Shown: positions 3,176-48,127 of the stretch, in pieces | How positions within the stretch are numbered: position 1 is the first letter of the stretch | Layout: every line of letters begins with the position of its first letter | Source of the DNA: an uncultured Clostridia bacterium | GTDB taxonomy: Bacteria > Bacillota > Clostridia > Christensenellales > UBA1242 | Direction: 5' to 3' | Length of the DNA stretch: 64,000 nt | Assembly (NCBI GenBank): GCA_934747805.1 | Contig: CAKVHC010000002.1 | Location: forward strand, 16,694 to 80,693 | Translations under genes and position numbers: made by a program | The notes under the pieces: model-generated | Databases searched by the model: none | Seen by the model: only the letters and a program-made list of their open reading frames with translations | What the model was told of the DNA's origin: nothing

Positions 3176-3204
3176 TTGACAATTAGCATCCAGTTTGGTA
3201 ATAT
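3176..3204 (+). promoter_or_regulatory. sigma-A type promoter for tRNA-Ser
   Basis: TTGACA (3176-3181), 17-nt spacer, TAATAT (3199-3204). Implies a leader of about 70 nt before the tRNA. Confidence 0.55.
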
Positions 3205-3280
3205 GGAATAGTCAGCATAAGAGAAACAAGGGCTAATGTGCTTCGGGATACTCCCTTAGCAGTGTCGCCTAACTAAATAT

Positions 3281-3371
3281 GGAGAAGTACTCAAGAGGTC
3301 GAAGAGGCTCCCCTGCTAAGGGAGTAGGCTTGTAACAGGGCGCGAGGGTCCGAATCCCTCCTTCTCCGCCA
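3281..3371 (+). tRNA. tRNA-Ser(GCU), class II with long variable arm and encoded CCA
   Basis: Acceptor GGAGAAG/CTTCTCC. Anticodon arm CTCCC-CTGCTAA-GGGAG gives anticodon GCT. T-arm is GAGGG-TCCGAAT-CCCTC, then G-CCA. Confidence 0.9.
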
Positions 3372-3405
3372 AAAATTGCATTCATATTTTGAATGCAATT
3401 TTTAT
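3372..3405 (+). terminator. rho-independent terminator after tRNA-Ser
   Basis: AAATTGCATTCA-tatt-TTGAATGCAATTT stem of about 12 bp followed by a T-run. Confidence 0.75.
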
Positions 3406-3462
3406 TTTTAATTGATTTTATTTTGACATTAGTTTATAATATTTACAAATCAAGGAGAATTT

Positions 3463-6827: not shown

Positions 6828-7589
6828 ATGTTTGATACACATGCACATTTAACTGACGAAAAATTTGATGCCGACCGCAACGAAATGTATGTACGCTTTT
6901 TGGCATGCCCAAACCCTATGGCAGTGGTCATAGGCTGCGATATGGACGAAATTGATGAAGCGATAGATTTTGCGAGAGCACACGACGAACTTCATTATGC
7001 CATTGGCATTCATCCGTCGTATATAGATAAGTTCAATGAACAAGATTTTTTGAAGAAAGTGGACATTCATGACCCCAAACTCGTTGCCATAGGGGAAATA
7101 GGTTTGGACTATTATGAAGGGAATCCAGACAGAGAATCGCAGATAAAAGCATTCGATACTCAGATCAAAATTGCCAAGAGATTGGGGTTGCCTTTTTGTG
7201 TGCATTGCCGTGATGCTTATGGAGATTGTTTGCAGGTGCTTAAAGCGAACGCTCCGTATGAGCATGGTGGAATTATGCATTGTTACAGTGGCAGTGCCGA
7301 GTGGGCGAGTGAAGTGATTAAAATGGGGTTTTACATTTCATTCAGTGGCAACGTTACATTCAAAAACGCTAGCAGACTGCGTGAAGTGGCGAAGACCATT
7401 CCGTTAGACAGAATTCTTACCGAGACCGATTGCCCATATCTAGCGCCGGAAGGCAAACGTGGGAGTCGCAATGAACCTGCAAACGTTCAGTTCGTGATTG
7501 ATTGCCTTGCCAAATTGCACAACGTCAGTTATGAAGAAATGTTGCACATTACAGATGAGAATGGCAAACGTGCTTACAACATTCATTAA
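6828..7589 (+). CDS. tatD: TatD-family metal-dependent hydrolase (YabD-like)
   Basis: MFDTHAHL, GEIGLDY, FCVHCRDA and TETDCPYLAP motifs. An alternative in-frame ATG lies at 6783. Confidence 0.88.
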   Translation: MFDTHAHLTDEKFDADRNEMYVRFLACPNPMAVVIGCDMDEIDEAIDFARAHDELHYAIGIHPSYIDKFNEQDFLKKVDIHDPKLVAIGEIGLDYYEGNPDRESQIKAFDTQIKIAKRLGLPFCVHCRDAYGDCLQVLKANAPYEHGGIMHCYSGSAEWASEVIKMGFYISFSGNVTFKNASRLREVAKTIPLDRILTETDCPYLAPEGKRGSRNEPANVQFVIDCLAKLHNVSYEEMLHITDENGKRAYNIH

Positions 7590-11800: not shown

Positions 11801-14800
11801 ACATAACCAAACCAGATGAGTTATCCACCGTAAATGGTTATATTGAAGTGCCAATCAGTGCAACTTATGGACTAGATAACTACACAGATTACATAATTAA
11901 AGTGGGCAACATTGAATACTCACACAGTAATCTGCTGGAATATAGCAATCTGATTGTCATGAATGACAAATTTGCGGATATAACCAATGACGAAAAAGTT
12001 GATGGGGAAAATAAGTTCCAACTCATTGGCAATGTTTTGAGCGTTAAAGGCACAATCAGTCAGGTGTATTATATAGAGATTAATGTTAAAGCACCTTATG
12101 CGTCAAGTGTAAAATTGAAACTATATCTGCACAGTGCAGTAAGCGTTGCATATGAAGATTACGCAACTAAGAATGATAAATATCAACAGATATATTCTGG
12201 CACAAGCTTTATTCTAATGGATCAATCTAGCGAGACAGCAGTTTCTCCATTCAAGATTTTTGTTGCCAAGAATTTGGCGAAGTTCGCTGATGCGAGTGGC
12301 ATCAAGTCAGTAACTGTTTCAACGTCGGCTGACGGGAAAACCTTCACTGCTGATGGAACAACCATTATTCCTACCAACGAAAGATATTTGTTCACTGTTG
12401 ACAGCGGCTATGTTGGAAAATATGTGAAATTCACAATCAGCTTCAACATTCCAGCTGACAATATTGAGTATATTGTTTATGTCAACGATAATCTGCTTGT
12501 GGAAGAAAAATCTACAGCGTTCATCCAGAACGGCACTCTTACAGCGTATTGCGGAGAAGGGTATAATCTCGCCGATTATATCACTCTCAATCAATTTGAC
12601 AACAATGAATATGCCGAATATTCTCTGTCAAACGCTAATAAAATTGCCGATCCTAGTTATCAGATTGAAGGTTTAGCAGATTTTGACCTGTCCAGCAGTT
12701 TCACATGCAATTGGGATTGGGAAGGTAAAGAACTAAACGTTACTTACAATGGCAAAAATGTTATTAAAATTGCAGTCACCAATCCTTATAAAATTATTCA
12801 ACAAAGTGCTGACAATTTGCATGTAAAGGCTTTGACTGTGGTTAAATTGGCAGACTTTATCAATGAAACAGGCATCAAAGTACTCAAGAAAGCCATCAGT
12901 TTTAACCCAACATTAACTTATTACAATGCTGAGGGCCGTGAAATCGTTAATGCAGTAGAATCAGGCATTGAAGATTACTACACAATGGTCGACAGGGCAG
13001 TTTACACTATTGCTTTTGCTGAAAGTGGGATTTTGTCTGACGCAGAAGTTCGCATTGGTGAATTGAACAACGAAACATATTTGTATGTTAATAAGCAAAC
13101 TGCTGCAGGCAGCATCACATATCAGATTACATATTATGATGAAGAGAACGAAAGTCGTCAAAATGCTAATGTGATTATGCTTGTGCAACCTAACTTGCCA
13201 GATGATTTCATCAAGGACAATAGACAAGGCACTAGCGGCGATACAATTGACTTGAAATCATTTATCAACACCACTTTCGAATATGATTTGTTTGAATGGA
13301 ACGATGAGTTAAATCAACCAGTCAAAGCTGCTGGCGAGATCAAACTATCAGAAGAAACGCCATTTACATCTAATGACACTGAGTTTTTGAAGAGTGATCC
13401 ATCCATGTTCGTGGCAGTTGAGCCTACTGACCCACGTGGCGACTCGATACTTACATTCACAGTTCACACTGACTTTGGCTACAGCCAAGAATTCACTGTG
13501 ACAATCAAGTCAGCCATTCAATTGATAGCCACTTATCCAACACATGTTTCTACTCAAAAACAAATTGACGGAGAAATTGTTGATATAGTTTATGAGCAAG
13601 TAACACCAGGTCAAACTGTGAATATGTTCGCCCCAGACGATGAGAATAAAATTACTCGCATTAAGGCAACCAGAAACGGCACTGAAACTATTACAACAGG
13701 CTTGAATATTGGATACAGCTATTTGGCTGGTCGTGACGATGTCAATGCGATGAGCCTTATCACTATTAATAATAACGGTTCAATCACATTCAAAGACACC
13801 AACACTACAGGATTGTTCGCAATGACAATCAGTGTAAGCAATCGTGAATTGCTGTACTATTTCTATTTAGCACCTAAGGCTAATATAGCATTTACACCAA
13901 ACTATAGTGGCGATGCGGAAATTGTCAAAGTGAACAAAGACAACAAAACACTTGACATTGCTAATCTCTACACACTCAAAATAGACGGCGTGGACGTTGA
14001 CAAGTCTAAGTTGCAGTATGAAATCTGTTATTCGACCAACACAAACACCACAATTGTGGATAGCATGCTCACATTTGAAGAATCGAATGTGATAAATGAC
14101 TACATCGTCGTAATATATGATAAAGAATATATATATGGCTATTATAAAGTACAAACAGCACCAGACGTAGTCACTGAGAACACAGAAATCAGTTGGACGC
14201 CTGACAAGATAGGCGAAACACTCAGCCCATTGCCAACATTTGAATATGACGGCGGTGCAATGGAAATATTGAGTGTGGTCGCAGATAGCAATTTAAGTGA
14301 GTATCTCAACATTAGTGCGGACAATGCTATCACGCTCAAACAGTTTGTTCCAAATGCTGTTACTGGCGTGCTGACGTACAAGTTGCGAATGATGTCTGAC
14401 GGAATAGAAATCGGCGAATACGAGCATAAAGTCGATTTGACAATCAGCCCAAGAGAGTATTTCGTGAACAACTACAATAGCACTAAGAATGCGTTAACAG
14501 TCATTGAAAATGACACATTCAGTCTGTTGGATAACGAATACAACCTTGCTGGCTTGACGGTGGCAGACAATGGCTTGAGTTACGAGCTCACACATATTGA
14601 CGGAATTTTGTACACGAACCAAGACCTGAGCAAATATTACGAAGAAAACGGCTTGAATTTCACATTCAAACCTGTGACAAAAGATGTTTTGTTGCAATTC
14701 GTTGTTAAGACCAACTTTGGCTATGAACAAGACTTGTACATTCGCATTTTGGCGAATATGAGTTCACCAAATTATCTAGAAAACATAGGTGCGACAGACG

Positions 14801-17800
14801 ACAGTGCTTTAGTTGTTGGCAACCAGTTTGTTGCAGGTGAAGACGGCAACAATGAGTTCGTATTCAAGCGTATGATCGACTTGAAAGATTATCTATCTAT
14901 TACAAACCGTGAAACACCTGCAGTTGAATTGCTAGTGGCAGACAATTTCCGTTTGAATGCGACAATATTGTCCAATTGGGCAATTGACGAAGGTTTGACA
15001 GCAGACAATCTTTATTCACTGAGCGGAACGATATTGACCTTCAAACCTCTTGCAAAAGACCTAGCACTCAAGTTCACAGTGCAAATTGTCATGAGTAAAG
15101 GCGAGAGCGGAGTCGAACCAGTATACTTTGAAAGAACAGTTGATTTCTTCATCAACCTTTCAGCAAACTATAGCGCAAAGGTGAATTATACCTTTGAGGG
15201 CGACGTGAGTGAACTAGTAGAAAACGGCGAGCATATCAATCTTAACGATGCTAATTTCTTGGAAAATAGAGATGCGCTATCAGGCATCACAACCTACAAC
15301 TCAAAGCGTATAACTTTCTATTACACCGCTGAAGATAACACTATAACTGAGTTTGACTATAGCAAGATTGCAGACAAGGATGTTAACAACCAGTTGGAAA
15401 TCTCGACTGAGAGCCAAACTAATGATAATATCCGTGCAACGTGGGATGATAGCAAGATCACTTTCTACAACAGAGAGTCTAGCGTCATTGGGTCAGTGAC
15501 TTTGAGATTTAAAAATCAAGTCGGCATCGACCTGACAATGACATTCAAAATCTATCCTGACAACACGCTTGATGCCATTAGTTCAATCAAATACAACGGA
15601 AAAGCTCCTAGCGAAACTAATGACCACGAATTAATCTTGGAAGGGGATTTGAACGAAAGTAACGACTTCGTCATCACCAGATTCGGCGAAAATTCGAAAG
15701 TTCAATTCAGATATCCTTCAGGCGAAATAACTGATTTTGTCAACTCGTTGAAAGAAAAGAGCGTAGTGGAATACGACGGCAAAATAGATAATGAATCATG
15801 CTTTAACATAATATTTAATGAATCAATAATTAGTATTCAGTTTGAAGACGCTAACGGCAATCCAATCTATCCAGCGCCTAAAATGTACACAATACACTTT
15901 ATGTCACGTGCAGGATACTTAGGCAGTTACAAGTTTACGTTTAGCAAAGACGTGACATTCACACACCTAAATCCAAACTACAACACAGTGACAGGAGAGT
16001 CAATTTACGGTTCAGCAACTGGTGAATATATCTTGGATAGAGTAAACATAATGTTGAATCCTTACACGGACGGCTACAGTGCTAACCAAGTAAACCTTTC
16101 TGATATGCTTAGAACTTCAAGTGAGTATAACAATTACACAATTGAATATAAGTCAAATTCAAACTACATTACTATTGGCACAAACGACGAAAAAACTCGC
16201 ACAGATTTGCTAACATTTGGCGAAGTGCCTAAGGACACTATTGCCAGTGTAACAATAAGGGTGCTTTATAAAGGCGTTGTAATAGCATCCCATGACTACA
16301 TTTTCACAATTAGAGAACACTTGATAGTCTCATTGGGTGATTACAATAGCGAGCTCACTAAAACGTCTCTCGACATCTATATGCGAGATTTCTACATTAA
16401 TGAATTTAATGCAGACAGTTTGCCGGAGTCAGTGGAGTACGATTTGACAAACAAAAATGACAATATCGATGGTTTGTACTTCACGCTCTTCGACGTTTAT
16501 AAAAATGAATACGCCGGTGTCAACGATCTCCGATTCGATATTGACACAGCCTCTAACGAGGGCATCACAGAATATGTACAACTCGACCAAGACAACAGAA
16601 AATTAATATTCTTAAAAGACGTAAAGGTTGAGACAAAACTCTACTTGAGAGCAAGACACCAACTTGGTGAATACAACACATTCACCATTACGATCAAACC
16701 AAGCATTGCAATTAGTCAATACTCGAACGGTGATAGTAACTACATTTATCCGGGCAATGAGTTTAATACGGTGTATTCGCTCGACGAACTAACACTCTCA
16801 AATACTACAAACAAAACTGATGCAGTTGGTACATTGCCAAGAATTAATTTTGACGATGTCAAAGATAAAGGAAAAGCACCATTGAGCATTTATGCAGTGT
16901 CCAATGGTATGTATGTTCCACTTGTTGATGCATCCGTCGAAAAGAAAGTAGTCTCTATGGGATATGCAATGTTTGACTCGGAAGAAGCACTGACTAATGT
17001 GTCAACAGGATATCTGAGAACTGCGTATATCAATTTGACAGTAAAATACGACGAAACACAGACTGTAATTACAAATACACAGACTGGAAATACAAATACT
17101 TGGTACAATGCTTACTCATTTACCGTTCCTAATGTGAACAAAGTAAAAATTATGGCAGTCAAGGTTAGTGTTCGCCTATTGGGTAACACGTACTACGATT
17201 CATACTATTTCATCAAAGTAAATCCTGTATTGGAAATTGGCACAAGTGACAAATATAGCACACTTACACAGATTTTAAAGGATGACTTGAAAAATAGTAC
17301 TACTAGAACCGCAAGCGAGTACACTTTGTTTAACAAAGATGGAAAGTTATCTGATACAGCGACTGGATTGTTCTATTGGTCTCCAAGAGCAAAAATGGAA
17401 TCGTTCGATTTCGATAAGTTTAGTGATAACGTTATTTTCGTAATCACTAGCGTTGATAACGGATTGACTAACAAACTAACCTTTGGACTTTCAAGCACCG
17501 TAGATAACATTGCTTTGACTATTGAGTCGGATAACGGCACACTATTCAACAATGCACTTAAATTCAGACTATATATTCTTGCTAAGGACAGTAGAAATGC
17601 GTTTGAGTTTGAAAACGAAGCCTCAATCAAGACGTACGACGCAGTTGATAAAGAAACCTTGACAAAGCTTGAAAACAACATGATATTTGCACAAGACATT
17701 GAAATCAAGCCTGAAAAGGCGCTGGGCATATATACAATCGACGACAAGGGCAACTGGACGGATATCAAACAAATTGACACTCTGAAGGAACTGGGACTGC

Positions 17801-18648
17801 CTACTAGTCAGACTTATATGATTGATTACGTAATAGCCAGCGGCATAACTGGAACAAGCCGAATTGTTGACTTAATTAAAAACAATTTCATTGGAGAAAA
17901 TCTCGAAGACTACATTACTGGTTCCGATAACGTCTCTCTAACTTTAAATAACACTGCTGATTACGATTGGGCTATCTATAGCGAGAATATAACAGTTACA
18001 TATGGCAACTTTATATTAACTCGTGAGTTCAAGCACATTGAAAGCAACAGCAATACGTTTGTTAGAGTAAATTACTCTACGTATGGTTATAGATTGGTAA
18101 TGACACCTGAGATTAAAGGCGAAAATTATATCAACAACTGGTACAAACTAAATGAATCAGTCAGTCTTGTATCTATTAACACCAATTATGGTGTGCATAT
18201 GAACACCATAACAGAGATTTCAGATGCTAACAAGGTAAATATCTCTTTAGTAAACGAGAACACTAAGGTACAAATATTCACTCAAGATACGAAGTGGTAC
18301 ACATTAGACGGCAACGGCAACTACGTGCAGTACAATGGCAATCAATTTGAAGAAGGTGTAGAATATTATTACTATGATAATTACATGGGCAACTATCGCA
18401 AGTTCGATTGGAGAGCCTACACGCTCTACAATTCTGATGGAGAAGTAACCACTAGTCTTGGAATCAATTTGTATATTGATCTAAAAGATTGCGTGAAAGA
18501 CAATGTATTCACACTTCCATACGAAGCGTGGGCTTCTGAATCTATGAGTCTTTCATTCAATGTAGAGATTATATATGGAGATAAGTCTTACAAATCTCAA
18601 ATTAGAATTCTAGAAATTTCTGCAAAGCCTAACAAATCTCAAGGCTAA
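8884..18648 (+). CDS. giant (3254 aa) N-terminally membrane-anchored surface protein, orphan
   Basis: Uninterrupted 9765-nt ORF with an AGAGG RBS. One N-terminal TM helix (IVGLSFCGVIGVFGIIAGVMAI). N/T/Y/D/I/S-rich, beta-type composition. No LPXTG motif and no recognisable catalytic motif. Confidence 0.85.
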   Translation: MFKRIMKIVGLSFCGVIGVFGIIAGVMAIRGDFKQKKIKPTGLYFSADETYFSDNQLLLSPVQDTDSFYFQVKADNEDCNVLGIKLSITSGADVIKIVDKNNSPITDAKIWGDVKIIPQTQGGINVGGTARISAISDDGLVATTRDLVVHVDVPVQDLTPSDDVKNTAGDNTCKTPTRDKGPVDSKRYFTYVASTKTFNEVDNILYDGKYYDFDVNKGIYKQVTTTDSSTYLNFAELYEDCYMATMFNDNSLNIDTLYKFYPNSPNSQNPINRDGYGNKNVEAFILDADDLQLATLSADGKSIISNGKGLTGDVRVLLAVYPTYAKQKLAQADTTISNKERIEKYMVSREIVIRIGATTIKDMSVSRKSLSLKLFEYIPLQLNNSLAENNLGMVIRDTADNPISSIYKYLKFSFVDAMGNDANDLGAYFTITNDQSTTVPDLADDVEKEDLSGNTQLYIYAKRYIPKAYMKISYVSGTETLKDVYVELYTTFVEPSISLNAGTGTIDKLIDDRLIGGVNNAANIIDLAGHYTVTSEETVYRTVLYFAKSDNKNLAPENFPVCVFSNKTYTNGEITYYLVGYTENDGEGNVTVVTDKLKANVGTGNISIIAVVVRTDYKGRIINLNTPKVDGEYVELDLADGNAYEFNTDYSQADGESEKKSSAMTASTQQLSVSIAYKVQNVDISLSAKLGDNDVTTEGDQKYVENTMVKGKKSNTFYLRESFAGTITLLLNDCYDKSALQTASDKGLISLSAVMYDQNGVYNRYGQYESIANYINLRNKTAVYDDNVFIGYRYDVELLKATPQDCYITFALSVYDYNESFPRTIQNADNTYEEYRLDNIVILSGAVQKIDLVDKNGDDLLENNSVDNPLILLAKWNEDKKQFDYTLDGKSVTNGENFLSKGEFNILISPSYASNKNYLLSSANGAVLSIGSNNAITIGKELGKVKLTISCDNVESYIYIELRLDTSSDATINITKPDELSTVNGYIEVPISATYGLDNYTDYIIKVGNIEYSHSNLLEYSNLIVMNDKFADITNDEKVDGENKFQLIGNVLSVKGTISQVYYIEINVKAPYASSVKLKLYLHSAVSVAYEDYATKNDKYQQIYSGTSFILMDQSSETAVSPFKIFVAKNLAKFADASGIKSVTVSTSADGKTFTADGTTIIPTNERYLFTVDSGYVGKYVKFTISFNIPADNIEYIVYVNDNLLVEEKSTAFIQNGTLTAYCGEGYNLADYITLNQFDNNEYAEYSLSNANKIADPSYQIEGLADFDLSSSFTCNWDWEGKELNVTYNGKNVIKIAVTNPYKIIQQSADNLHVKALTVVKLADFINETGIKVLKKAISFNPTLTYYNAEGREIVNAVESGIEDYYTMVDRAVYTIAFAESGILSDAEVRIGELNNETYLYVNKQTAAGSITYQITYYDEENESRQNANVIMLVQPNLPDDFIKDNRQGTSGDTIDLKSFINTTFEYDLFEWNDELNQPVKAAGEIKLSEETPFTSNDTEFLKSDPSMFVAVEPTDPRGDSILTFTVHTDFGYSQEFTVTIKSAIQLIATYPTHVSTQKQIDGEIVDIVYEQVTPGQTVNMFAPDDENKITRIKATRNGTETITTGLNIGYSYLAGRDDVNAMSLITINNNGSITFKDTNTTGLFAMTISVSNRELLYYFYLAPKANIAFTPNYSGDAEIVKVNKDNKTLDIANLYTLKIDGVDVDKSKLQYEICYSTNTNTTIVDSMLTFEESNVINDYIVVIYDKEYIYGYYKVQTAPDVVTENTEISWTPDKIGETLSPLPTFEYDGGAMEILSVVADSNLSEYLNISADNAITLKQFVPNAVTGVLTYKLRMMSDGIEIGEYEHKVDLTISPREYFVNNYNSTKNALTVIENDTFSLLDNEYNLAGLTVADNGLSYELTHIDGILYTNQDLSKYYEENGLNFTFKPVTKDVLLQFVVKTNFGYEQDLYIRILANMSSPNYLENIGATDDSALVVGNQFVAGEDGNNEFVFKRMIDLKDYLSITNRETPAVELLVADNFRLNATILSNWAIDEGLTADNLYSLSGTILTFKPLAKDLALKFTVQIVMSKGESGVEPVYFERTVDFFINLSANYSAKVNYTFEGDVSELVENGEHINLNDANFLENRDALSGITTYNSKRITFYYTAEDNTITEFDYSKIADKDVNNQLEISTESQTNDNIRATWDDSKITFYNRESSVIGSVTLRFKNQVGIDLTMTFKIYPDNTLDAISSIKYNGKAPSETNDHELILEGDLNESNDFVITRFGENSKVQFRYPSGEITDFVNSLKEKSVVEYDGKIDNESCFNIIFNESIISIQFEDANGNPIYPAPKMYTIHFMSRAGYLGSYKFTFSKDVTFTHLNPNYNTVTGESIYGSATGEYILDRVNIMLNPYTDGYSANQVNLSDMLRTSSEYNNYTIEYKSNSNYITIGTNDEKTRTDLLTFGEVPKDTIASVTIRVLYKGVVIASHDYIFTIREHLIVSLGDYNSELTKTSLDIYMRDFYINEFNADSLPESVEYDLTNKNDNIDGLYFTLFDVYKNEYAGVNDLRFDIDTASNEGITEYVQLDQDNRKLIFLKDVKVETKLYLRARHQLGEYNTFTITIKPSIAISQYSNGDSNYIYPGNEFNTVYSLDELTLSNTTNKTDAVGTLPRINFDDVKDKGKAPLSIYAVSNGMYVPLVDASVEKKVVSMGYAMFDSEEALTNVSTGYLRTAYINLTVKYDETQTVITNTQTGNTNTWYNAYSFTVPNVNKVKIMAVKVSVRLLGNTYYDSYYFIKVNPVLEIGTSDKYSTLTQILKDDLKNSTTRTASEYTLFNKDGKLSDTATGLFYWSPRAKMESFDFDKFSDNVIFVITSVDNGLTNKLTFGLSSTVDNIALTIESDNGTLFNNALKFRLYILAKDSRNAFEFENEASIKTYDAVDKETLTKLENNMIFAQDIEIKPEKALGIYTIDDKGNWTDIKQIDTLKELGLPTSQTYMIDYVIASGITGTSRIVDLIKNNFIGENLEDYITGSDNVSLTLNNTADYDWAIYSENITVTYGNFILTREFKHIESNSNTFVRVNYSTYGYRLVMTPEIKGENYINNWYKLNESVSLVSINTNYGVHMNTITEISDANKVNISLVNENTKVQIFTQDTKWYTLDGNGNYVQYNGNQFEEGVEYYYYDNYMGNYRKFDWRAYTLYNSDGEVTTSLGINLYIDLKDCVKDNVFTLPYEAWASESMSLSFNVEIIYGDKSYKSQIRILEISAKPNKSQG

Positions 18649-18658
18649 AACAAACAAA

Positions 18659-18684
18659 AAAGTCCAACATTTTGGACTTTTTTT
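18659..18684 (+). terminator. rho-independent terminator of the giant gene
   Basis: AAAGTCCAA-catt-TTGGACTTT followed by a T-run. Confidence 0.8.
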
Positions 18685-18694
18685 GATTTTGGTA

Positions 18695-18723
18695 TTGCAA
18701 ATTGTGGAATAATGTGCTAGAAT
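18695..18723 (+). promoter_or_regulatory. sigma-A promoter with extended -10
   Basis: TTGCAA (18695-18700), 17-nt spacer ending TGc, then TAGAAT (18718-18723). Confidence 0.5.
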
Positions 18724-18745
18724 AACACCAAAAGTGGAGGAAATT

Positions 18746-21700
18746 ATGGCATTTAATGATGAAGGACTTATGAGAGAGTTGGCACGTATCAATAGAGCGG
18801 AGATTGATCTTGACAACAAAAATGCTGTCAAAGCTTGGGTTGACAACACTTCGTACAAATATATGATAGACGCAAGTGATAATTCCTATGGTTTTGTTGA
18901 GAAAATCATCGTTGCATTATTGCTTTTGGGCGACGAAACAGAAACTACAGTTGGCTTGACTGCAGAAGAACGTAACACTGTTATGCGTATTGCCAACGAT
19001 GCATCACTATTGAGAGATAAAACGTATCTGACTAAAGTCTTGACAATGTTTTACAAAAAGGCTGACGGCAGAGATTTGACAAAACAGAGTGACGAACTTA
19101 ACTTGGATTTTGTTAAGTCATATCTTCATAACTATGGATTTAACGATTTGGCAGTTGACACAATCATTTCTCGTGGCAGAATTAGTGATAAAGCAAGTCT
19201 TGTTAACAATGCAGCTAAAGTAATTAGTGCAAACGTTGGAACCAAGACCATCATTAGCAAGGCTAGCGAAATATCTTCCGCAAAGAAAGATGTCATCAAA
19301 CTAGCTGAGAAAGTTTACGAGAACAGCGGTGTTCCGGCAGCTCACAGCATTGATAGCATTCCGAACAGAATTTGGACTGGCAGCGATGTTACGACCGATA
19401 AAGACGGACTAGCTACTTATGTAAAATCCGGTCAGCTGAAGAAAGCTGAAGAACGAATTGTGACTGACGATAAGAGTCATCCATTGACCGGCATTTTAAG
19501 AAGCTTTGTAACAGACAGCGACTCAGTTAAGGTTGAAACACCTGACCAGATCATAGACGACATTCAAGCATATTTGTCGATGAGTGATCGTTTGACTACG
19601 GTTAAAACCGAATCAGAATGGAAAGATATTCGTAAGAACATTGAAGTTCATGCTCAATTGGAAATTGACGAGGACGGCAATGGTGTCATCAGCACTCCAA
19701 TCAGTGGCAAAAAGTTAAAAACCAAAACCGCTGACGGAAAGAAGATTGTTAAAACCGTAGAACTAGGTACAGTTGGCATCGAACCAGGAGCAAGTTTCGT
19801 AGGTTATGACTTATCTGATTCTAAGGTTAAAAAGGCTTACGACTTGATGCAACAAGGTTCGCTCAGCATCCACAACCCTGACGACAGACTCGCAATCGAT
19901 TTGTTGAACGCACACAAATTGTATTCTAGTGCAGTTGGTTTGCCAGTTAGCCCAAAAACTACTACAGCCAACATCTATGCCAACATGATTGATCAACCTG
20001 AGGGCATCATTGCCGCAGACGGTTTGACCAGTGCAATGCGAGACTTTTTCAGTAAGATTATCAACAACTCTAACAGTCCATACAATCGTGTTGACATCAA
20101 CAATGGTGTAGTAGATTACGACAGCGACCACACCTTTAGCACTAACGTCAATAAATTGTTTAAAAACAAGACCAAAAAGATAACTGGTACTAAATTGAAA
20201 TTCAGTACACGCTTTATCAGTTATGACGAAAATGGAGAATTAAATGGTGCTGGCATTTTGAAGAGTGACGATGCCATCAAATTCTCTGTAATTCAATCAA
20301 TTGTGCTAGACTATGTCAGCGCTCTCGGAAAGAAAGTAAAGAATTCTAGTTTCAAGATTGTTGGCGCTGCAAAAGATAATGTCCGTGACCCTAACGAACG
20401 TGCTTTGATTGCCAACCTAGCCACACAATATGTAATGTTAGGTTATTCATTTGGTGAAGGCTCCGCACATAGAACTAACGAAGATATCATCAGCACATAT
20501 CTAATGGAAAACCAAGCTTCACTCATGGCAGGTCTTGCAAAATCTGGCAAGGATTATAAGTTGGTATTGCCACGTGCTTATAAACTAGCTTTGGAAATCG
20601 CAGAGACAGTTACTGATTGCCTTGGCGTAGATAAGACTATGAAACGTGATGAAAGAACAGGCCAAATCGTTGAAAAGAGCGAACTCGTTGCCAACTTTGA
20701 ACGTCACGGCTTCACATTCCCAAGAATGAACTCTAACGATCAGCCTTTGTTTATGTCGAATGACCAAAAAGCAAGACTTTCTGGCGCCGACTTGAAGAAA
20801 GTTAATGACGAAGAAAAGCGTTTGCGTGGATTGGATATCACATCACAAGATAGTTTGGGTGCACTTTTGGTAACCTGCATTGACACTCAACTCTCACCAA
20901 GAGAAATCACCATCGAACCAAAGGATGAAGCTATTAAACAAGCCGACGAAAGAAAATTCGCTGGTGGATTTAGTGTTGCAAGCAGCGGTGACGCTCCTGT
21001 ATTTATTGACATGGGCGTATTTACTAATAGTGATACTGCTGATACACCTAAAATTGACAAAGAAGATTTGGCTGCTACCAAAATCCCAGAAAAGACTGCC
21101 GACTATGAGAAGAATCCTACTGGCGAACCTTCTCCAAAGTCAACATTCGAATCTTTGTTTGATAAAATGCTTGGCGGCACCGGTACAGAAGAACCTGAAA
21201 AGAAAGCGGCTACTGAATCCGATCGAAGAGTTGGTCAACTTTGGGAAAGCACTGGAGACGCTCCATTCCCTGTACGTGTCTTTAGAGATGGAAGACCTCT
21301 AGAGACCAAACCTCTAGAAGCAACCAAAACTCCAGAAGAAACCAAAGCTTCAGGAACAATCTATTTGCCAGGCAAAGTGGAAAGCATGGAAGGTGCGAAT
21401 GTCCCAGCAATCAAAAAGTCCGCTAGCGAAAATCTTCCTGCAGGAATAATTGAGGTTTCGTTTAGTGGTGTTGAAGAAATTTCTCCTGCTTCTCATGATA
21501 GTAAGAAAAAAGTGAAGAAAATAGCAACGCAAGTATTATGCTCGTTGAACCTTGCTACTGGAGATTTGACTTACACTTTCAAATACAATGAAATTGGTGA
21601 TGATGTTGTTGTTGAAGAGAAATGGACTACAAAATTGACTAAAGATCAGCTAGATGACATTAACAATGCCATAAGTAAGAAAAAGAAAATAAGTGTTTTG

Positions 21701-21802
21701 GCCGAGTACGCTAGAAAGATTGGAAAAAACCGCTTTAAAGATTTTATGATGAGAAGTCTACACAATAGTGACGTTTCAATTGAAAATAACATCTCAAAAT
21801 AG
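18746..21802 (+). CDS. large (1018 aa) orphan protein without signal peptide or TM segment
   Basis: GGAGG RBS 6 nt upstream of ATG 18746; the ORF-track GTG at 18734 lies inside that RBS. A Pro/Glu/Lys/Thr-rich linker sits near aa 800-900. No family motif recognised. Confidence 0.8.
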   Translation: MAFNDEGLMRELARINRAEIDLDNKNAVKAWVDNTSYKYMIDASDNSYGFVEKIIVALLLLGDETETTVGLTAEERNTVMRIANDASLLRDKTYLTKVLTMFYKKADGRDLTKQSDELNLDFVKSYLHNYGFNDLAVDTIISRGRISDKASLVNNAAKVISANVGTKTIISKASEISSAKKDVIKLAEKVYENSGVPAAHSIDSIPNRIWTGSDVTTDKDGLATYVKSGQLKKAEERIVTDDKSHPLTGILRSFVTDSDSVKVETPDQIIDDIQAYLSMSDRLTTVKTESEWKDIRKNIEVHAQLEIDEDGNGVISTPISGKKLKTKTADGKKIVKTVELGTVGIEPGASFVGYDLSDSKVKKAYDLMQQGSLSIHNPDDRLAIDLLNAHKLYSSAVGLPVSPKTTTANIYANMIDQPEGIIAADGLTSAMRDFFSKIINNSNSPYNRVDINNGVVDYDSDHTFSTNVNKLFKNKTKKITGTKLKFSTRFISYDENGELNGAGILKSDDAIKFSVIQSIVLDYVSALGKKVKNSSFKIVGAAKDNVRDPNERALIANLATQYVMLGYSFGEGSAHRTNEDIISTYLMENQASLMAGLAKSGKDYKLVLPRAYKLALEIAETVTDCLGVDKTMKRDERTGQIVEKSELVANFERHGFTFPRMNSNDQPLFMSNDQKARLSGADLKKVNDEEKRLRGLDITSQDSLGALLVTCIDTQLSPREITIEPKDEAIKQADERKFAGGFSVASSGDAPVFIDMGVFTNSDTADTPKIDKEDLAATKIPEKTADYEKNPTGEPSPKSTFESLFDKMLGGTGTEEPEKKAATESDRRVGQLWESTGDAPFPVRVFRDGRPLETKPLEATKTPEETKASGTIYLPGKVESMEGANVPAIKKSASENLPAGIIEVSFSGVEEISPASHDSKKKVKKIATQVLCSLNLATGDLTYTFKYNEIGDDVVVEEKWTTKLTKDQLDDINNAISKKKKISVLAEYARKIGKNRFKDFMMRSLHNSDVSIENNISK

Positions 21803-41965: not shown

Positions 41966-43090
41966 TTAGTTTTTGGATGCTGTATTTTCAGTTTGAATTT
42001 GATTTTGTTGTGACTTGGCATAGTCTTGAGCTAGGCTAACGAAGTTGGCTCCAAGCAAGGTTTGACATGCCTTGTCCACGGTCATCTCGTGTGTGTGGTC
42101 GAGATAGTTTTGGAAGGTGGTTAGCATCTGCTCTTTTTCAGTTTTAGTAGAATTGTTGAATTTATCAATCCACCTGTCTGCAACGACTCTGCCGACGACG
42201 TATCTAAACATATGTGAACTGTTACTTTCAGACACCATTTTTTCAATACGGCTGGCAAGTTGTTTCCTGCCCGTGCGCATGTAATTGGTATAGAGTTTGT
42301 TAAGTGATTTTTCGCTCATATCTCCATTTAGGTCACGAATGATGTCGCTCTCTTCACGAACGACGTTGATGTCGTGTTGTAGACTGTTGCGTGCTCCTTG
42401 CTCGTAGTTTTGCATGTCTTCTTGTGTATAAATATTATTAGACAAGAGGTATTGATTAAATAGGGCTTCCACAATATGGCTTTCAATTTCACCAACACTT
42501 TGAGCGTCGGCTTTGAATCTAGTGTAGTCCTCAATTTCCTTTTTGCTTGCTCCACTACGTATGAGCTGGATGAGATGTTGGTGGTGCGAACTGAGAGCAT
42601 GAGCGGTTTCGTGAGCCGTCGTTCGTAGGTCGTCTAGCGAGCCATGTATGTAAATGTCAAAATTTAAATGCATATTTGACCCATTTTGCCCAACACTACT
42701 TGATCGATGGTCACCTTTTGGAACTTGTATAAATTGTACATGGCTGTTGCCGTTTTCGTCAATGAAATAGGGGTGAGTCTTGTCCAAAATTTGTTTGGCT
42801 TCATCTGCTTTTTGTGGCATACACTTATCAAAAAAATCTTTCACTAAATCAGTCCATTTCTTCTCGTCGAATGGTAAATCTCGATCGTGTTTGCAAGGGC
42901 CGGTTTTCAAACTATCCTCGATAATTGCCAGTGATTGCAACTTGCTAATATCTCCATTCGTCGACGCAGTTAAAAAGTCTAAAAACTCTTTTGAATGTCT
43001 GCACTTGTCCGCAAAACGACGTGCAAATTCGGTGTCAAATTTTTTGCTTGGTACGAATATTGATTTAACTTTATCAATAATATTTGCCAT
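41966..43090 (-). CDS. putative cytoplasmic zinc metallopeptidase (HExxH), family not recognised
   Basis: LRTTAHETAHALSSHH (HExxH) with a downstream GEIESH. No signal peptide. Confidence 0.45.
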   Translation of the reverse strand: MANIIDKVKSIFVPSKKFDTEFARRFADKCRHSKEFLDFLTASTNGDISKLQSLAIIEDSLKTGPCKHDRDLPFDEKKWTDLVKDFFDKCMPQKADEAKQILDKTHPYFIDENGNSHVQFIQVPKGDHRSSSVGQNGSNMHLNFDIYIHGSLDDLRTTAHETAHALSSHHQHLIQLIRSGASKKEIEDYTRFKADAQSVGEIESHIVEALFNQYLLSNNIYTQEDMQNYEQGARNSLQHDINVVREESDIIRDLNGDMSEKSLNKLYTNYMRTGRKQLASRIEKMVSESNSSHMFRYVVGRVVADRWIDKFNNSTKTEKEQMLTTFQNYLDHTHEMTVDKACQTLLGANFVSLAQDYAKSQQNQIQTENTASKN

Positions 43091-43250: not shown

Positions 43251-43547
43251 ATGCAAAATAAAGTTAAAATTTTTAATGAAAGTATGCAATGTCACAGGAC
43301 GCCAATGCCTTGCTCTGCTAGATTGCTAGATATTGTTAGCGAATTGGGCGAATTAGGTAAGGAATATTTGAAGGCAACGAAATATGGCACACAACCAATG
43401 GAACTAACCGAAGACTTCATCTTGGAATTTGGCGATGTTTTATACTCCTTACTCAGTCTTGCCAATGAAATGAACATTGATGCGAATGACGCATTAGACA
43501 AAGTGATAACTAAATATCAAAATAGAATAAACAAAATGGTAACCTAG
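43251..43547 (+). CDS. MazG-like nucleotide pyrophosphohydrolase (small single-domain type)
   Basis: LLDIVSELGELGKEYLK...EFGDVLYSLLSLANEMNIDANDALDKVITKYQNR is the typical MazG helical pattern. AAGGAG RBS. Confidence 0.7.
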   Translation: MQNKVKIFNESMQCHRTPMPCSARLLDIVSELGELGKEYLKATKYGTQPMELTEDFILEFGDVLYSLLSLANEMNIDANDALDKVITKYQNRINKMVT

Positions 43548-43644
43548 GAAGCGGTAGATAGTTAGTTGTTTCTATATTCAGGCTAAATTAACATATAATT
43601 GGATTAAAATAAAAAAAACAGGTTAAACCTATTTTTTAGCATCG

Positions 43645-43792
43645 TGGTGTCGAAGGCGGGACTTGTCTATGCGACGATAGTCGTATATTTCGGGTGGCGT
43701 CGAAGACGACGGGACCCCGAATACAAGGTGAAAGTCTCTTGATAGAGTAATATGAATAAAAAAAACAGGTGCAACCTGTTTAATTATAAATC
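43645..43792 (-). repeat. unit A: degenerate 21-nt tRNA-Leu T-loop-to-CCA copy plus hairpin module plus terminator hairpin
   Basis: tggtgtcgaaggcgggacttg (43645-43665; 2 mismatches to the tRNA end). The body is about 90 percent identical to 47858-47999. The hairpin module lies at 43678-43722. Confidence 0.7.
43757..43780 (-). terminator. rho-independent terminator downstream (minus strand) of the partial tRNA-Leu copy
   Basis: Minus strand reads ACAGGT-tgc-ACCTGT followed by T8. Confidence 0.55.
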
Positions 43793-43848
43793 TGGTGCCG
43801 AAGGTGGGACTTGAACCCACATGAAGTTGCCCTCGCAAGATTTTGAGT
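43793..43848 (-). repeat. perfect 56-nt copy of the 3-prime part of tRNA-Leu(CAA), anticodon loop to CCA (att-like direct repeat)
   Basis: Identical to 48042-48097. Identity stops exactly at the 5-prime edge of the anticodon loop. Confidence 0.9.
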
Positions 43849-44467
43849 TATTTATATGGTGTTTTGTTTGGTGTTGTTTCTTACTGTTTTGCATTAGTTA
43901 AAGCCTTATAGAAGTCCTATAAATAAAGGGAGTTCCGCATATTGATTCGTTATTTTATGTTATATTGTGTTATATGATATTTAGTCGTTGTTTTTAAGAG
44001 TTTCTCAAAAAGAGAGGGGTGAGTGGATTTGAAGGCGAAGGCGGAATAGCCATTTATTATTTCGTTATGTGGGGCAAAGATAGAATAGTTTCACCATGGT
44101 GTGCAAAAAAAATTTGGTTTAAAATTTACACTAAGGTGGGGCAAACCATTGGATTTTTTACTGACAATATGCTAACATATAAAAACAATCACAAACAAAA
44201 AGATTAAACCGCTTAATATAAAAATCTATAAAAATTTGCAAAATATAGACAAGGTAACCAAACAGGGAATAAACCAAAACCACTTAAAATTACCCATTAG
44301 TGTGCAATATTTTGGGCTAATTTTACCAAATTTATAGTTCGCTGCACTCTGTTGGTGGCACAATTAGCTTTTGCAAGACGCAAAAACACAGCCCCAAAGC
44401 AGTTTTGTGATTTATAAAATATTTATAAAATGGATACAAACAAAAAAGTAAGAATGAGGTAAAATTA

Positions 44468-47400
44468 ATGAAAAATTTTGATAAAAAAATAAATGCCGCC
44501 ATAATAATTACCGTGATCCTCGTTTTTAGCTTTTTTGGTGTTGAAATAGTGAAATTTGGTACTAACTTAAATAATTCAGAATTCCAAAAAGTTGCAAACG
44601 TTCACAGTCTTTCGGTGAGAAATGAGGCAAAAACGACAACGCAAGTAAACCTTGGCGACTATATAATTCTTGGCAAATACAATGGTAAAGACATTGTATG
44701 GAGGTGTGTAAGTAATGATGAAAGTGGCACACTTATGCTTGCCGACAGTATAATAGATATTTTTCCGTATGACGCCATTACAAGCGACAATAATCGCTCA
44801 AAATCTCACAGTCGTGATTATAGACGTGACACCTACGGCTCTAACTATTGGAAGGATAGCAATATGCGTTCGTGGTTAAACTCTATCGCTGAAGTGGGCG
44901 AGGTAAAGTGGCTATGTGGTAATCCTCCAAAAGAGAACCATGTAGACGGCAACGCTTACGACCAGAAAGCGGGATTTTTGAATGATTTTTTAAGGGCGGA
45001 AATTGCCGCAATTAAAACCGTTACCCAGCGTTCGCTTGTGTCGCACCCAGAATATAAGCGAGGAATTTATGATGGAGATGGCCGTTCAGATTTAGAATTA
45101 AATGCAGATATTCAAAATGTTGCCAAAAACTATGATAGTGTTTATGGCGAAAACTCAACCGAAAAGGTTTTTTTGCTTGATGTTAAGCAAGTAAACACCG
45201 TTTGGAGAAACCTTGGTAGTTATTATGTTGGAAAAAATGAGCAAGGTGCAAATTGGCCATATTGGTTAAGAACTCCGGTAACCGATTGCAATCACGATAT
45301 GCGGTATGTTCACAACAATGGAACAATAGGCAGAGAGTCGCCACAACGCAGTTATATTGGAGTTAGGCCTGCCTTTTATCTTGATACAGACTATTATGTG
45401 GCAACTTCTGGTAGCGGAACTAAAGCAAGTCCGTATATAGGCTCCGCTCCTAATAAAGTTGAGGCCGATTATACCGTTGCAGAGCCAAATGACGACCCAA
45501 ACCAAGAGTGGGACATAAGCACAGACCAAAAACTTACGCTTGACCTTGGTCCATACTATTCTAGTGATGGCAAATACTCAAATCCAACAATTCCTGTATA
45601 CACCATTCAAAAAACAAGAAGCGACACAGAAAATATGGTAATTGTTATTTGTGGCGAAGGATATACCAAAAGTCAACAACAAAAATTTATAAACGATGTA
45701 AAAAAAGTGTGGAGAGGTGCCATGCAATACGAACCCTATCGCAGTTTTGCTGATAGATTTAATGTGTATGCTCTTTGCACGGCGTCTGAGTCTAGTTTTG
45801 AAAACGGCGGAAGCACATTTTTTGATGTGGTTGTAGGTTCTAACAATTCTTCGTCTATATCAACCAATTTGGGAAATCGTTGGAAAAACCATATTTTTGA
45901 AAGGTGTATTGGTCCTACATTTATAGAGCAAATTCATGATTCACATATTCCTAACAACACAGACCACAACACAATGTATTGGAATGACGACGAGCAATAT
46001 CCACCATATTATTATGTGCATAATTATATAAACCAGTTTGCCTTGCTGGTTAATACTAGTCGAAACTTTGGAGATGCATATAACAATTTAAAATTTGGTT
46101 TTCATTATTTTATAACTCCATCGGATAGTTATCGCGCCAAGCAAGCTTTTGCACATGAGCTTGGTCACGGGTTGCTAGGGCTTGGCGATGAATATATGAC
46201 CAGTGCCAAACCAGAAACGGACTATACTTCGCTAAATGTGGCATATACTCCTAACCCAGAGCAAGTAAAGTGGAAAAAATTGCTAGGATTTAGAAAAACT
46301 TTTACTTGTAAAACAGCGGAAACTAATACTACTTACAATTCTAGTTATGAGTGTATTATGCGAGATACAAACTACCAGTTTTGTGAAGTTTGCAAATTGC
46401 AAGGGTACAAAAGATTATCTCAACTTGTAAGTGGCAAAAGCCTTTATGTTGCCGACCCCGAAGTAAAAAAATACACCGGTCAATATTCAGATTTGTCTGC
46501 CTTTGCAGATACTACATACAACGGATATGCAAACTTTGCAAGTTATCGCAATACGGTATTGCTTAGTGGTGTAGACAAAAACAAATTTAACAAAAATTTG
46601 GCTGGCGAAAAAATTGAACTCCGCACAATTGTTCAAAATCTGTCAGATAGTATAACCCGTTACATTACTATCAAAGTGTGGATAAAGCGGACAGACGGAA
46701 GTATAGCAACTACAACTGGCGGACAAAGGCTAGAAACCTCGCAAACATTTACCATTCCTATATGGGAAGAAAAAAGTAAGTTTTGGCCAAGGGGTGCTCT
46801 AGAATACAATGGCAGTGTTTTGGATTCAGGACTAGAAAATTGCTCAATAATTTACCAAATTCCGGCAGATGCCGACCTAAAAGAGGGCGATACTATTGCC
46901 TTTTTGATATCTGATGAAAATGGAAATGTTTTATCGCACGACAATATCGAAACGCAGTCGTACGCAAATGTTAATATAGAGTACAGGTTTGAAGACGGTA
47001 GTGAAATTCCTAATGTTTCAAAGGCCGTAATTCCTATGGCTGTTGGAAGCAATCTAAATTGGGAACCAGCTCAATCTTTTTATGGGAATACATTAAGTAG
47101 AGTAGAGGGGCTAAATCAAGTAGTAAGCGGTAGTGGTCAAACGGTAACATTCTATTATATCAAGCAAATCAACAACCATATTCATGATTGGGGAAAATGG
47201 GTAAGCAATAACAACGGTACGCACACCCGAACTTGCAAAACAGATAGTAGCCACACCCAAACAACCAATTGTTTTGGCGGAAAGGCAACATGCACAACAA
47301 AAGCGGTTTGTGAAGGTTGTAAAGAGGCATATGGAGAAATTGTTGCGCACAACATAACAAAATATGGTGGAAAAGATAGCACGGGGCATTGGGATACCTG

Positions 47401-47638
47401 CTCTACTTGTAATGGCAAGTTTAATTTTGAAGGGCATACCTACGACAGAGAATCTCCAGACGAAACCAACTCTGTAAAATGTACAAAGTGCGGATTGCTA
47501 ATTGCACCTGCAAAACAAAGAAAAGGGCTTTCTGGCAAAGCGGTAGCGGGTATTATAATTGGCTCGGTAGCGGTTGTTGTACTGGGAGGATTTGTTATTT
47601 GGTTGCGGTTAAAAAAAAGCCGTTGTAGAGTTAAATAA
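44468..47638 (+). CDS. membrane-anchored multidomain protein: DUF6273-like domain + M64 (IgA-peptidase-like) metalloprotease domain + Cys/His-rich repeats + C-terminal TM anchor
   Basis: N-terminal signal/anchor. DUF6273 pattern: WRCVSN..., NYWKDSNMRSWLNS, VFLLDVKQV, YWLRTP, GVRPAFYLD. M64-like motif FAHELGHGLLGLGDEY (46154-46195). HDWGKW...C...C repeats. C-terminal AVAGIIIGSVAVVVLGGFVIWL-RLKK. Confidence 0.7.
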   Translation: MKNFDKKINAAIIITVILVFSFFGVEIVKFGTNLNNSEFQKVANVHSLSVRNEAKTTTQVNLGDYIILGKYNGKDIVWRCVSNDESGTLMLADSIIDIFPYDAITSDNNRSKSHSRDYRRDTYGSNYWKDSNMRSWLNSIAEVGEVKWLCGNPPKENHVDGNAYDQKAGFLNDFLRAEIAAIKTVTQRSLVSHPEYKRGIYDGDGRSDLELNADIQNVAKNYDSVYGENSTEKVFLLDVKQVNTVWRNLGSYYVGKNEQGANWPYWLRTPVTDCNHDMRYVHNNGTIGRESPQRSYIGVRPAFYLDTDYYVATSGSGTKASPYIGSAPNKVEADYTVAEPNDDPNQEWDISTDQKLTLDLGPYYSSDGKYSNPTIPVYTIQKTRSDTENMVIVICGEGYTKSQQQKFINDVKKVWRGAMQYEPYRSFADRFNVYALCTASESSFENGGSTFFDVVVGSNNSSSISTNLGNRWKNHIFERCIGPTFIEQIHDSHIPNNTDHNTMYWNDDEQYPPYYYVHNYINQFALLVNTSRNFGDAYNNLKFGFHYFITPSDSYRAKQAFAHELGHGLLGLGDEYMTSAKPETDYTSLNVAYTPNPEQVKWKKLLGFRKTFTCKTAETNTTYNSSYECIMRDTNYQFCEVCKLQGYKRLSQLVSGKSLYVADPEVKKYTGQYSDLSAFADTTYNGYANFASYRNTVLLSGVDKNKFNKNLAGEKIELRTIVQNLSDSITRYITIKVWIKRTDGSIATTTGGQRLETSQTFTIPIWEEKSKFWPRGALEYNGSVLDSGLENCSIIYQIPADADLKEGDTIAFLISDENGNVLSHDNIETQSYANVNIEYRFEDGSEIPNVSKAVIPMAVGSNLNWEPAQSFYGNTLSRVEGLNQVVSGSGQTVTFYYIKQINNHIHDWGKWVSNNNGTHTRTCKTDSSHTQTTNCFGGKATCTTKAVCEGCKEAYGEIVAHNITKYGGKDSTGHWDTCSTCNGKFNFEGHTYDRESPDETNSVKCTKCGLLIAPAKQRKGLSGKAVAGIIIGSVAVVVLGGFVIWLRLKKSRCRVK

Positions 47639-47836
47639 AAAACAAAACGAACTTCTATTTTTTTGAAGTGAACCTTATAAAGTTATCTAACTTTTGGGTT
47701 TGCTTCTTTTTTCTTGGGTTCGTTTTGTTTTACTGAAAAGCACTTTTTGTGACACACGCCGCCACTTTGCTTAGTTTGAATGAATAAAAAGCCCAAACTA
47801 AACGCTTAATTAAAAGTATTCAGTTTAGACTCATGT

Positions 47837-48041
47837 TGGTGCCGAAGGTGGGACTTGTCTATGCGACGGTAGTCGTATATTTCGGGTGGCGTCGAAGACG
47901 ACGGGGACCCGAATCTATCTAAATATAGTCGTATATTTCGGGTGGCAACGGAGTTGACGGGGACCCGAATACAAGGTGAAAGACCCTCGATATGCTAAGT
48001 AAAAATAAAAAAACAGGTTAAACCCATTTTTCCAGTGTTCG
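47837..48041 (-). repeat. unit B: perfect 21-nt tRNA-Leu T-loop-to-CCA copy plus two tandem hairpin modules plus weak terminator-like hairpin
   Basis: tggtgccgaaggtgggacttg (47837-47857) is identical to 48042-48062. Modules lie at 47870-47914 and 47926-47970, a period of 56 nt. Confidence 0.75.
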
Positions 48042-48127
48042 TGGTGCCGAAGGTGGGACTTGAACCCACATGAAGTTGCCCTCGCAAGATTTTGAGTCTT
48101 GTGCGTCTGCCATTTCGCCACTTCGGC
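48042..48127 (-). tRNA. tRNA-Leu(CAA), class II, encoded CCA
   Basis: Minus strand reads GCCGAAG...CAAGA-CTCAAAA-TCTTG (anticodon CAA)...GTGGG-TTCAAGT-CCCAC-CTTCGGC-A-CCA. Confidence 0.92.

Follow-up and report, generated by a model that had tools for sequence, protein, structure and literature searches.

The DNA examined in the present study is a 64,000-nt stretch of human gut origin from an uncultured Clostridia bacterium (CAKVHC010000002.1, positions 16,694-80,693, forward strand; hereafter the window). Our subject is the locus at positions 43645-48127 of this window, an islet situated between an intact tRNA-Leu(CAA) gene and a displaced copy of its 3' part, with a gene for an M64 metalloprotease in between. 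Read in the tRNA direction, the first half of the locus comprises the tRNA, terminator B, a structured repeat (unit B), a 21-nt copy of the tRNA tail, a terminator and the convergent M64 gene, and the second half comprises the leader of that gene, an arm of non-coding DNA, a 56-nt fragment of the tRNA, terminator A, unit A, an outermost tail copy (tail*), terminator 0 and mazG. Related loci fetched from other genomes and assemblies, ~700 kb in total, are designated by L-numbers (L001, L005 and so on), with L001 (CAAGAD010000005.1) representing the closest genome in the species-representative collection. The tRNA genes were called by ARAGORN and Rfam, and Rfam was searched at gathering thresholds and at E<=10 with the units, the leader and the window region.

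The intact tRNA-Leu(CAA) gene (48042-48127, minus strand), called by both ARAGORN and Rfam, has a promoter-like site at 48175-48147 and is directly followed by the terminator B hairpin (termB; 48006-48034, minus strand). Its last 56 nt (48042-48097), which form the identity block on the side of the left attachment site (attL), recur on the same strand at 43793-43848 with 56 of 56 nt identical, as an earlier note on this DNA had claimed. That note placed the end of the identity exactly at the 5' edge of the anticodon loop, which is correct to within 1 nt, the block beginning one base earlier, with position 31 of the tRNA, where the 5' anticodon stem ends. Its further observation that the duplication runs beyond the tRNA end is borne out by a comparison of 43645-43722 with 47837-47914 (93.6% identical), the tRNA-side copy having one additional 56-nt hairpin module. 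A second, shorter repeat was overlooked: the 21-nt terminus of the tRNA, from T-loop C56 to CCA, is present four times, starting at 48042, 47837, 43793 and 43645 (the last with 2 mismatches), compared with an expectation of 0 from shuffled sequences. On account of these four copies the locus is therefore nested, consisting of an outer 21-nt and an inner 56-nt repeat. The segment is bracketed by an intact tRNA gene and its cognate 3' fragment in direct orientation, and the identity blocks start at canonical sublocations, namely position 31/32 for the 56-nt repeat and C56 for the 21-nt copies. Anticodon-centred and T-stem sites are the two standard attachment-site (att) sublocation classes (PMC4383910).

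The islet was previously described as holding one large surface-protease-like gene, ~620 bp of non-coding DNA and no integrase, and this description is accurate. The sole open reading frame (ORF) between the 56-nt copies is the M64 gene (44468-47638, plus strand, convergent with the tRNA), which encodes 1056 aa with DUF6273 and Peptidase_M64 domains, a HELGH motif, a weak MucBP match and a C-terminal hydrophobic stretch resembling a membrane anchor. Non-coding DNA amounts to 619 bp (43849-44467) and is entirely covered by the arm and the conserved M64 leader; composition and GC content are unremarkable, with no anomaly. No integrase or recombinase was found in the islet, within +/-10 kb of it, or among 10 further window ORFs of >=200 aa. 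With the M64/DUF6273 gene as its only ORF, the islet encodes neither a tyrosine integrase (PF00589) nor the genes of a phage satellite (phage-inducible chromosomal island or P4-like), which carries its own integrase, replication and packaging-hijack genes. The ~470-nt leader and promoter region upstream of the M64 gene (43990-44467, plus strand) is common to the M64 loci of at least five other species, being conserved above many coding regions, has no Rfam match and could be a long regulatory leader.

The search for an empty site in relatives, suggested in the earlier note, was successful in L001, whose udk product is 99% identical to that of the window at the amino acid level and whose flanks are 86-90% identical in nucleotide sequence. 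In this genome tRNA-Leu is followed by a terminator similar to terminator B, ~120 bp and mazG, both unit and M64 gene being absent, and no M64 homologue from L001's genome was present among the M64 search matches. The counterpart of this empty tRNA 3' end and terminator in the window is tail* (43645-43665, minus strand) together with terminator 0 (43612-43637), beyond which lies the MazG-like gene of the left chromosomal flank (43251-43547, plus strand), which is present in L001 and missing from L005. An independent assembly in ENA (L003) has the same arrangement as the window, while another assembly (L005) has a variant form with four modules in unit B, neither unit A nor mazG, and terminator 0 directly after the 56-nt fragment. 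The locus is therefore not an assembly artefact, and its structure is real and polymorphic. The L005 islet is 97.8% identical to that of the window and the flanks have diverged equally (96.8-97.9% identity). Short Logan contigs end at the repeats, as expected.

The same crossover recurs in other species. A 31-nt piece of the core was found in 20 species-representative genomes, occurring twice in two of them, and the relatives sharing the tRNA-Leu(CAA) core carry the labels Christensenella or Catabacter. In CAKVLP010000001.1 a perfect 56-nt repeat with the same starting nucleotide (ACTCAAAATC...) has copies 3.6 kb apart, enclosing genes for a terminase small subunit, a DUF4417 protein and a radical SAM protein. 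In DIPL01000011.1 (Christensenella sp. UBA5489) the identity spans 47 nt, again from the same starting nucleotide, with copies 4.2 kb apart that enclose two HisS/HisZ-like genes and a polyprenyl synthase gene; here too the duplication passes the tRNA end, continuing through the terminator. The displaced fragment in the window (43793-43848, minus strand), which would be the core of the right attachment site (attR), adjoins an arm (43849-44003, minus strand) homologous to the DNA beside the displaced copies in L005 and CAKVLP010000001.1 (77% over 151 nt, window 43854-44003, by blastn and alignment), with partial homology in DIPL01000011.1/L054. The motif AACACCAWAYAAA occurs twice directly beside the core and is absent elsewhere in the ~700 kb of fetched sequence. 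Given the same crossover nucleotide and the shared arm, these would therefore be attR sites of one integrase family. The comparisons identify the 56-nt repeat as an attL/attR-type scar of an element family predicted to cross over at the tRNA-Leu(CAA) anticodon loop, and the ~120-150 nt next to the displaced copy as the apparent surviving attP arm of a phage-like integrative element.

Nothing 5' of the displaced copy resembles a tRNA 5' half, the DNA at that position being homologous to the arms of the other islets. This refutes a tandem tRNA gene duplication with 5'-half remnants, the arrangement that the earlier note had considered fatal to an integrated element. A cognate integrase or attP elsewhere, which that note proposed to look for, was not encountered: the window, the related loci and IMG/VR yielded no integrase, attP or circular form. 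The 19 ORFs inspected at tRNA-Leu(CAA) loci included 9 in the CAKVLP010000001.1 and DIPL01000011.1 islets and 10 downstream of the tRNA in other species; none of these encodes an integrase, nor was there one near 16 other tRNA-Leu(CAA) loci. IMG/VR returned 0 matches for the core or for arm plus core, its distant DUF4417 relatives have no tRNA-Leu core, and the CAKVLP010000001.1 islet DNA, compared with phage sequences, gave no more than weak gene-level matches.

Homologues of the M64 protein (66-92% amino acid identity) are found in ~20 related species, each in a different housekeeping neighbourhood, and no recombinase or integrase family recurs among 113 ORFs flanking the M64 genes of 20 species. 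Of 21 M64 loci, 10 have a tRNA or tmRNA gene no more than ~700 bp away (Leu-CAA, Leu-CAG, Leu-TAG, Ser-GCT, Arg-TCG and tmRNA); the 3' flank of the cassette abuts the CCA of tRNA-Leu(CAG) in L011 and L012, and the cassette abuts a tail copy in L010 and L020. When the other M64 loci were searched sensitively for displaced tRNA fragments, only the tail copies in L010, L020 and L031 came up. Homology between these loci and the window extends from 43985-44094 to 47845-47862, that is, over the leader, the gene and its 3' flank (47639-47836, minus strand) up to the internal tail (47837-47857, minus strand), which repeats the final 21 nt of the tRNA exactly. The mosaic junction on the leader side is sharp, with arm homology stopping near 44003 and M64-locus homology beginning at 43985-43993. 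At the tRNA-proximal end, the internal tail and the terminator that follows it (47783-47857) match the native tRNA-Leu(CAA) 3' end and terminator of L047 (85%) and L041 (83%), as well as L046, L049 and the displaced copy of CAKVLP010000001.1. A target-site duplication around the M64 segment was rejected, the sequences immediately flanking the segment not being identical.

Judged by these homologies, the islet resolves into three apparent components: a ~150-nt element arm, a chromosomal-type segment resembling a tRNA-Leu downstream region with M64, and the unit. Its content looks like captured chromosomal DNA, and nothing indicates an active satellite or continuing mobility. An integrated element that had lost its mobility genes, or a satellite, had been proposed before. 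The att scar lacking an integrase survives from that proposal, supported by the empty site, the shared crossover and the arm; the self-contained element or satellite does not, with the content beyond the ~120-150-nt arm consisting of the M64 cassette and a native-type tRNA tail and terminator.

The remaining component, the unit, is of a different nature. Unit B (47858-47990, minus strand) has a 5' segment (...GGGTCTTTCACCTTGTA), the 56-nt hairpin module (P4) in two copies and a further hairpin, P5, and unit A (43666-43745, minus strand), which follows the terminator A hairpin (termA; 43763-43781, minus strand) after the displaced fragment and is not in strain L005, has one hairpin module and P5. 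The core fold comprises an outer helix (TTCGGG...CCCGAA), an inner hairpin and P5, followed by ATAGACAAGTCC and a tRNA-specific tail. Units are ~80-190 nt in length, are placed after the tRNA terminator and end by repeating the final 21 nt of the tRNA, and each tail is then followed by a terminator oriented with the tRNA. Related units occur after tRNA-Leu(TAG) in L020, L033, L034 and L037, after tRNA-Leu(GAG) in L033 (probably in L036 as well) and after tRNA-Ser(GGA) in L027, and units of similar architecture and unrelated sequence were found after tRNA-Leu(CAG) in L031 and tRNA-Lys(CTT) in L020. In an alignment of 11 sequences, a small sample of ~five independent lineages, 93% of cells were paired, compared with 21-45% in slid-partner controls, and 7 of 20 unit pairs had changed on both sides (e.g. 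CGAC/GTCG, TGAT/ATCA and TGTC/GACA). A covariance model of the unit matched only downstream of tRNA genes and on the tRNA strand, with no match at 16 other tRNA-Leu(CAA) loci. Downstream tail copies of >=14 nt are present at 7 of 69 tRNAs in the fetched loci.

Copy numbers are fractional, ranging from ~1.2 to 2.0 periods (2.0 in L020, ~1.95 and 1.2 in L033, ~1.6 in L034 and ~1.3 in L037); the window has 1-2 unit periods, and the number of hairpin modules per unit varies from 1 to 4. In L036 an array (2922-3296, minus strand) mixes tails, of Leu-TAG type and then of Leu-GAG type, on unit cores identical to those of the Leu-TAG locus of the same genome (L034), and gene conversion between tRNA loci is therefore indicated. 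Taken together, the fractional copies, variable modules and mixed tails suggest that the units were expanded in tandem by unequal crossing-over and gene conversion. Neither the units nor the leader have an Rfam family, and no promoter-like site was detected inside the units. The exact unit 21-mer and a degenerate hairpin pattern gave 0 matches in genome contigs, viral contigs and JGI metagenomes, while a broader pattern of the unit core matched four genome loci and one metagenome locus only. The units are without a 5' acceptor strand or T-stem partner, which led us to reject a tRNA-like fold of unit and tail.

The extra ~150 bp of the duplication are best described as a member of a putative family of structured repeats linked to tRNA tails, separate from the att scar. 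This family is undescribed and, while only mildly novel, is the less expected part of the locus, the islet itself being ordinary. Transcription that starts at the tRNA promoter probably continues into the units; the functional form of a unit may be the RNA, single-stranded DNA or a minimal attP of the T-loop type. One proposal, which we hold with more doubt than belief, is that the units are an undescribed structured family specific to the 3' ends of class-II (Leu/Ser) tRNAs in gut Christensenellales-like Clostridia, each with its own terminator. They would then be small RNAs that present the tRNA 3' tail, serving as decoys or as substrates for processing, or else miniature elements consisting of an attP only, which a recombinase specific for the T-loop would move. 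The M64 cassette, too, might be carried by this mechanism from one Leu/Ser tRNA end to another, with no resident integrase. Repeats of comparable layout are reportedly known from Escherichia coli, where the 178-bp repeats of tyrT, associated with rtT RNA (Egan & Landy 1978; Bösl & Kersten 1991), are said to have a period that starts in the tRNA 3' end (~19-21 nt) and to follow the last tRNA gene in tandem, with fractional copies. The present units share this architecture, with a period that starts within the tRNA 3' end and recurs downstream, including as fractional copies. They differ in sequence (the Rfam rtT family had no match at E<=10 in the window region or L033), in phylum, and in having a terminator hairpin and covarying helices in every period.

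Two further observations concern tRNA ends in the fetched loci. Upstream of tRNA-Lys(TTT) in L033 (4530-4700) and L037 (2920-3060, minus strand), a ~170-nt GC-rich insert (...GGCGCGACGCGTTAA...) has a copy of the first ~19 nt of the tRNA and its leader on either side; this 5'-end equivalent of the tail repeats is not in Rfam. In L010, the 3' acceptor strand of tRNA-Leu(TAG) (2860-2942) is CATACGAACCA, mismatched to the 5' strand GCGGATG; beyond the M64 gene there is an inverted tail copy (6832-6852) whose sequence is the correct one. This tRNA may be chimeric or decaying as a result of T-loop recombination.

We consider it fairly probable that the locus as a whole is a nested recombination scar at the tRNA-Leu(CAA) 3' end, combining the att scar of a phage-like element family, a captured chromosomal M64 segment and a separate unit. 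The most economical account, as we infer it, would begin in a related donor in which an M64 gene lay just downstream of tRNA-Leu(CAA) and an element integrated at that tRNA. The element would then have excised aberrantly, or recombined by an illegitimate join, so as to link arm and core to the downstream M64 segment in the manner of specialised transduction. The resulting piece would then have recombined, through the core, into the same tRNA of the present lineage, with the help of an integrase acting in trans or by homologous recombination via the shared 56 nt and downstream sequence. Such a history would explain why the repeat stops so sharply at the anticodon loop, why a duplication of ~90% identity reaches ~150-200 bp beyond the tRNA and why mobility genes are missing. 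In its present state the islet has most likely become fixed and immobile, a scar with a surface protease as cargo.

Several points weigh against this capture history. No integrase of this specificity was found anywhere, so that integrase action is read from the scar. The mosaic event fits either direction, with import of the M64 segment or import of the mazG-side segment together with attR. The flanks of L001 are only 86-90% identical to those of the window, and its 'empty' site could reflect loss instead of the ancestral state. The left edge of the M64-cassette homology is ragged between species, and with no distal tRNA fragment at other M64 loci the movement of the cassette between tRNA loci is unaccounted for. 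Finally, the donor arrangement, in which M64 directly follows tRNA-Leu(CAA), was not recovered, the contexts seen being limited to Leu(CAG), Leu(TAG) and Ser.

Other explanations were weighed against the same evidence. The islet might still be active as a non-autonomous (CIME-like or satellite-like) element of 4.25 kb, with functional attL and attR sites moved by the integrase of a co-resident phage or integrative and conjugative element (ICE). Both att cores are perfect, the arm with its repeated motif has been kept, the islet occurs in two different left-flank backgrounds (window and L005), and helper-dependent integrase-less islands are known (PMC4383910; PMC5704250). We nevertheless regard this as unlikely, since the tRNA-proximal side is of chromosomal type with no recognisable element arm, and since the matching divergence of islet and flanks between the window and L005 fits vertical descent with flank indels; moreover, there is no attP, helper or copy in IMG/VR, and no integrase among the window ORFs tested or near related loci. 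A decayed prophage, in which the M64 gene would be a lysogenic-conversion 'moron' and the islet a remnant after internal deletions, appears quite unlikely. The islet of CAKVLP010000001.1 does retain phage genes at the same site, and M64 homologues (50-60% amino acid identity) are present on three short human faecal virome scaffolds labelled 'UNVERIFIED Bacteriophage sp.' (MT838250.1, MT837587.1 and MT836577.1; L058-L060). These scaffolds, however, have no tRNA genes and no annotation, and may represent bacterial carry-over in virus-like-particle preparations or transduced DNA. In ~20 species, moreover, the neighbours of the cassette are housekeeping genes, with no phage or integrase genes recurring among them, and the end of the cassette nearest the tRNA has a tRNA tail and terminator of native type.

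Integrases need never have been involved if homologous or illegitimate recombination alone had produced a local duplication of the tRNA 3' half and unit, followed by insertion of M64 between the copies. The duplicated block is indeed long (~200-260 bp) and ~90% identical outside the 56 nt, and unit arrays evolve by unequal crossing-over or gene conversion, as seen in the 1-4 modules, the fractional periods of L037 and L034 and the mixed tails of L036. Chance would not, however, give three species whose cargo is unrelated one and the same boundary nucleotide, nor does such a duplication fit a homologous arm beside the displaced copy that in one case adjoins phage genes, and we therefore judge it very unlikely. 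A retro-type origin, with the 21-nt and 56-nt copies arising as reverse-transcribed tRNA 3' fragments or as primer-binding-site-like sequences of a tRNA-primed element, seems scarcely credible. It would suit copies that begin in the T-loop and anticodon loop and include CCA, the antisense of which resembles a primer-binding site of 18-21 nt, and a reverse transcriptase (RVT_1) gene does lie 2 kb downstream of tRNA-Leu(CAA) in L038. Both boundaries are, however, classical integrase sublocations (PMC4383910), the window ORFs tested include no reverse transcriptase and none adjoins any unit, and the arm homology points to an attP.

The islet belongs to a well-known kind, the common integrase-less att scar. 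It resembles islands and prophages integrated in tRNA genes (Reiter 1989; Williams 2002; Islander, PMC4383910), specifically their anticodon-centred attP class, in having an intact tRNA gene with a direct 3' fragment, an identity block from the anticodon loop to CCA, an empty site in a relative and an arm common to independent islets. It differs from them in lacking the integrase gene that Islander requires (PMC4383910), in its mostly chromosomal-type content and in a duplication that reaches ~150-200 bp past the tRNA end. With cis-mobilizable elements (CIMEs) and other integrase-less islets derived from ICE or phage decay (PMC5704250, PMC7563491) it shares att flanks, the lack of recombination and transfer genes, and a tandem or nested position at one tRNA, but no cognate ICE or phage of the same att specificity was found in IMG/VR or the fetched loci. 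Specialised-transducing derivatives of the lambda gal/bio type and merodiploids are alike in joining an element arm to att-flanking host DNA and in a reintegration that duplicates a host segment; the islet is without phage genes, and this likeness is drawn from its anatomy.

Additional variable features were observed around the locus and at related sites. The window contains a 374-aa ORF (41966-43090, minus strand) with a weak Astacin-like Pfam match that is also present in L005 and absent from L001, in which mazG comes directly after the 227-aa gene; the left flank as a whole is an indel hot spot. In the Christensenella metagenome-assembled genome of L038, the RVT_1 gene mentioned above (2393-3604; 403 aa) occupies a position ~2 kb downstream of tRNA-Leu(CAA) at which L050 has a DUF5677 protein, and the site downstream of tRNA-Leu(CAA) looks like a general hot spot for variable or defence genes. 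Two adjacent very large ORFs of 3254 aa and 1022 aa at 8884-21802 of the window (plus strand) presumably encode surface or adhesin-type proteins.

As these findings indicate, a cargo gene may have a clean att-type repeat on both sides without belonging to a self-contained mobile element, the repeat here bracketing what looks like captured chromosomal DNA together with a ~150-nt phage-like arm. They also point to a host-interaction gene, encoding an IgA-protease-like M64 surface protease, being reshuffled among gut commensal strains at tRNA ends. The unit family, supported by covariation, located at the 3' ends of Leu and Ser tRNAs and outside Rfam, may matter more than the islet itself, as a candidate new tRNA-linked RNA or mini-element of an uncultured clade.

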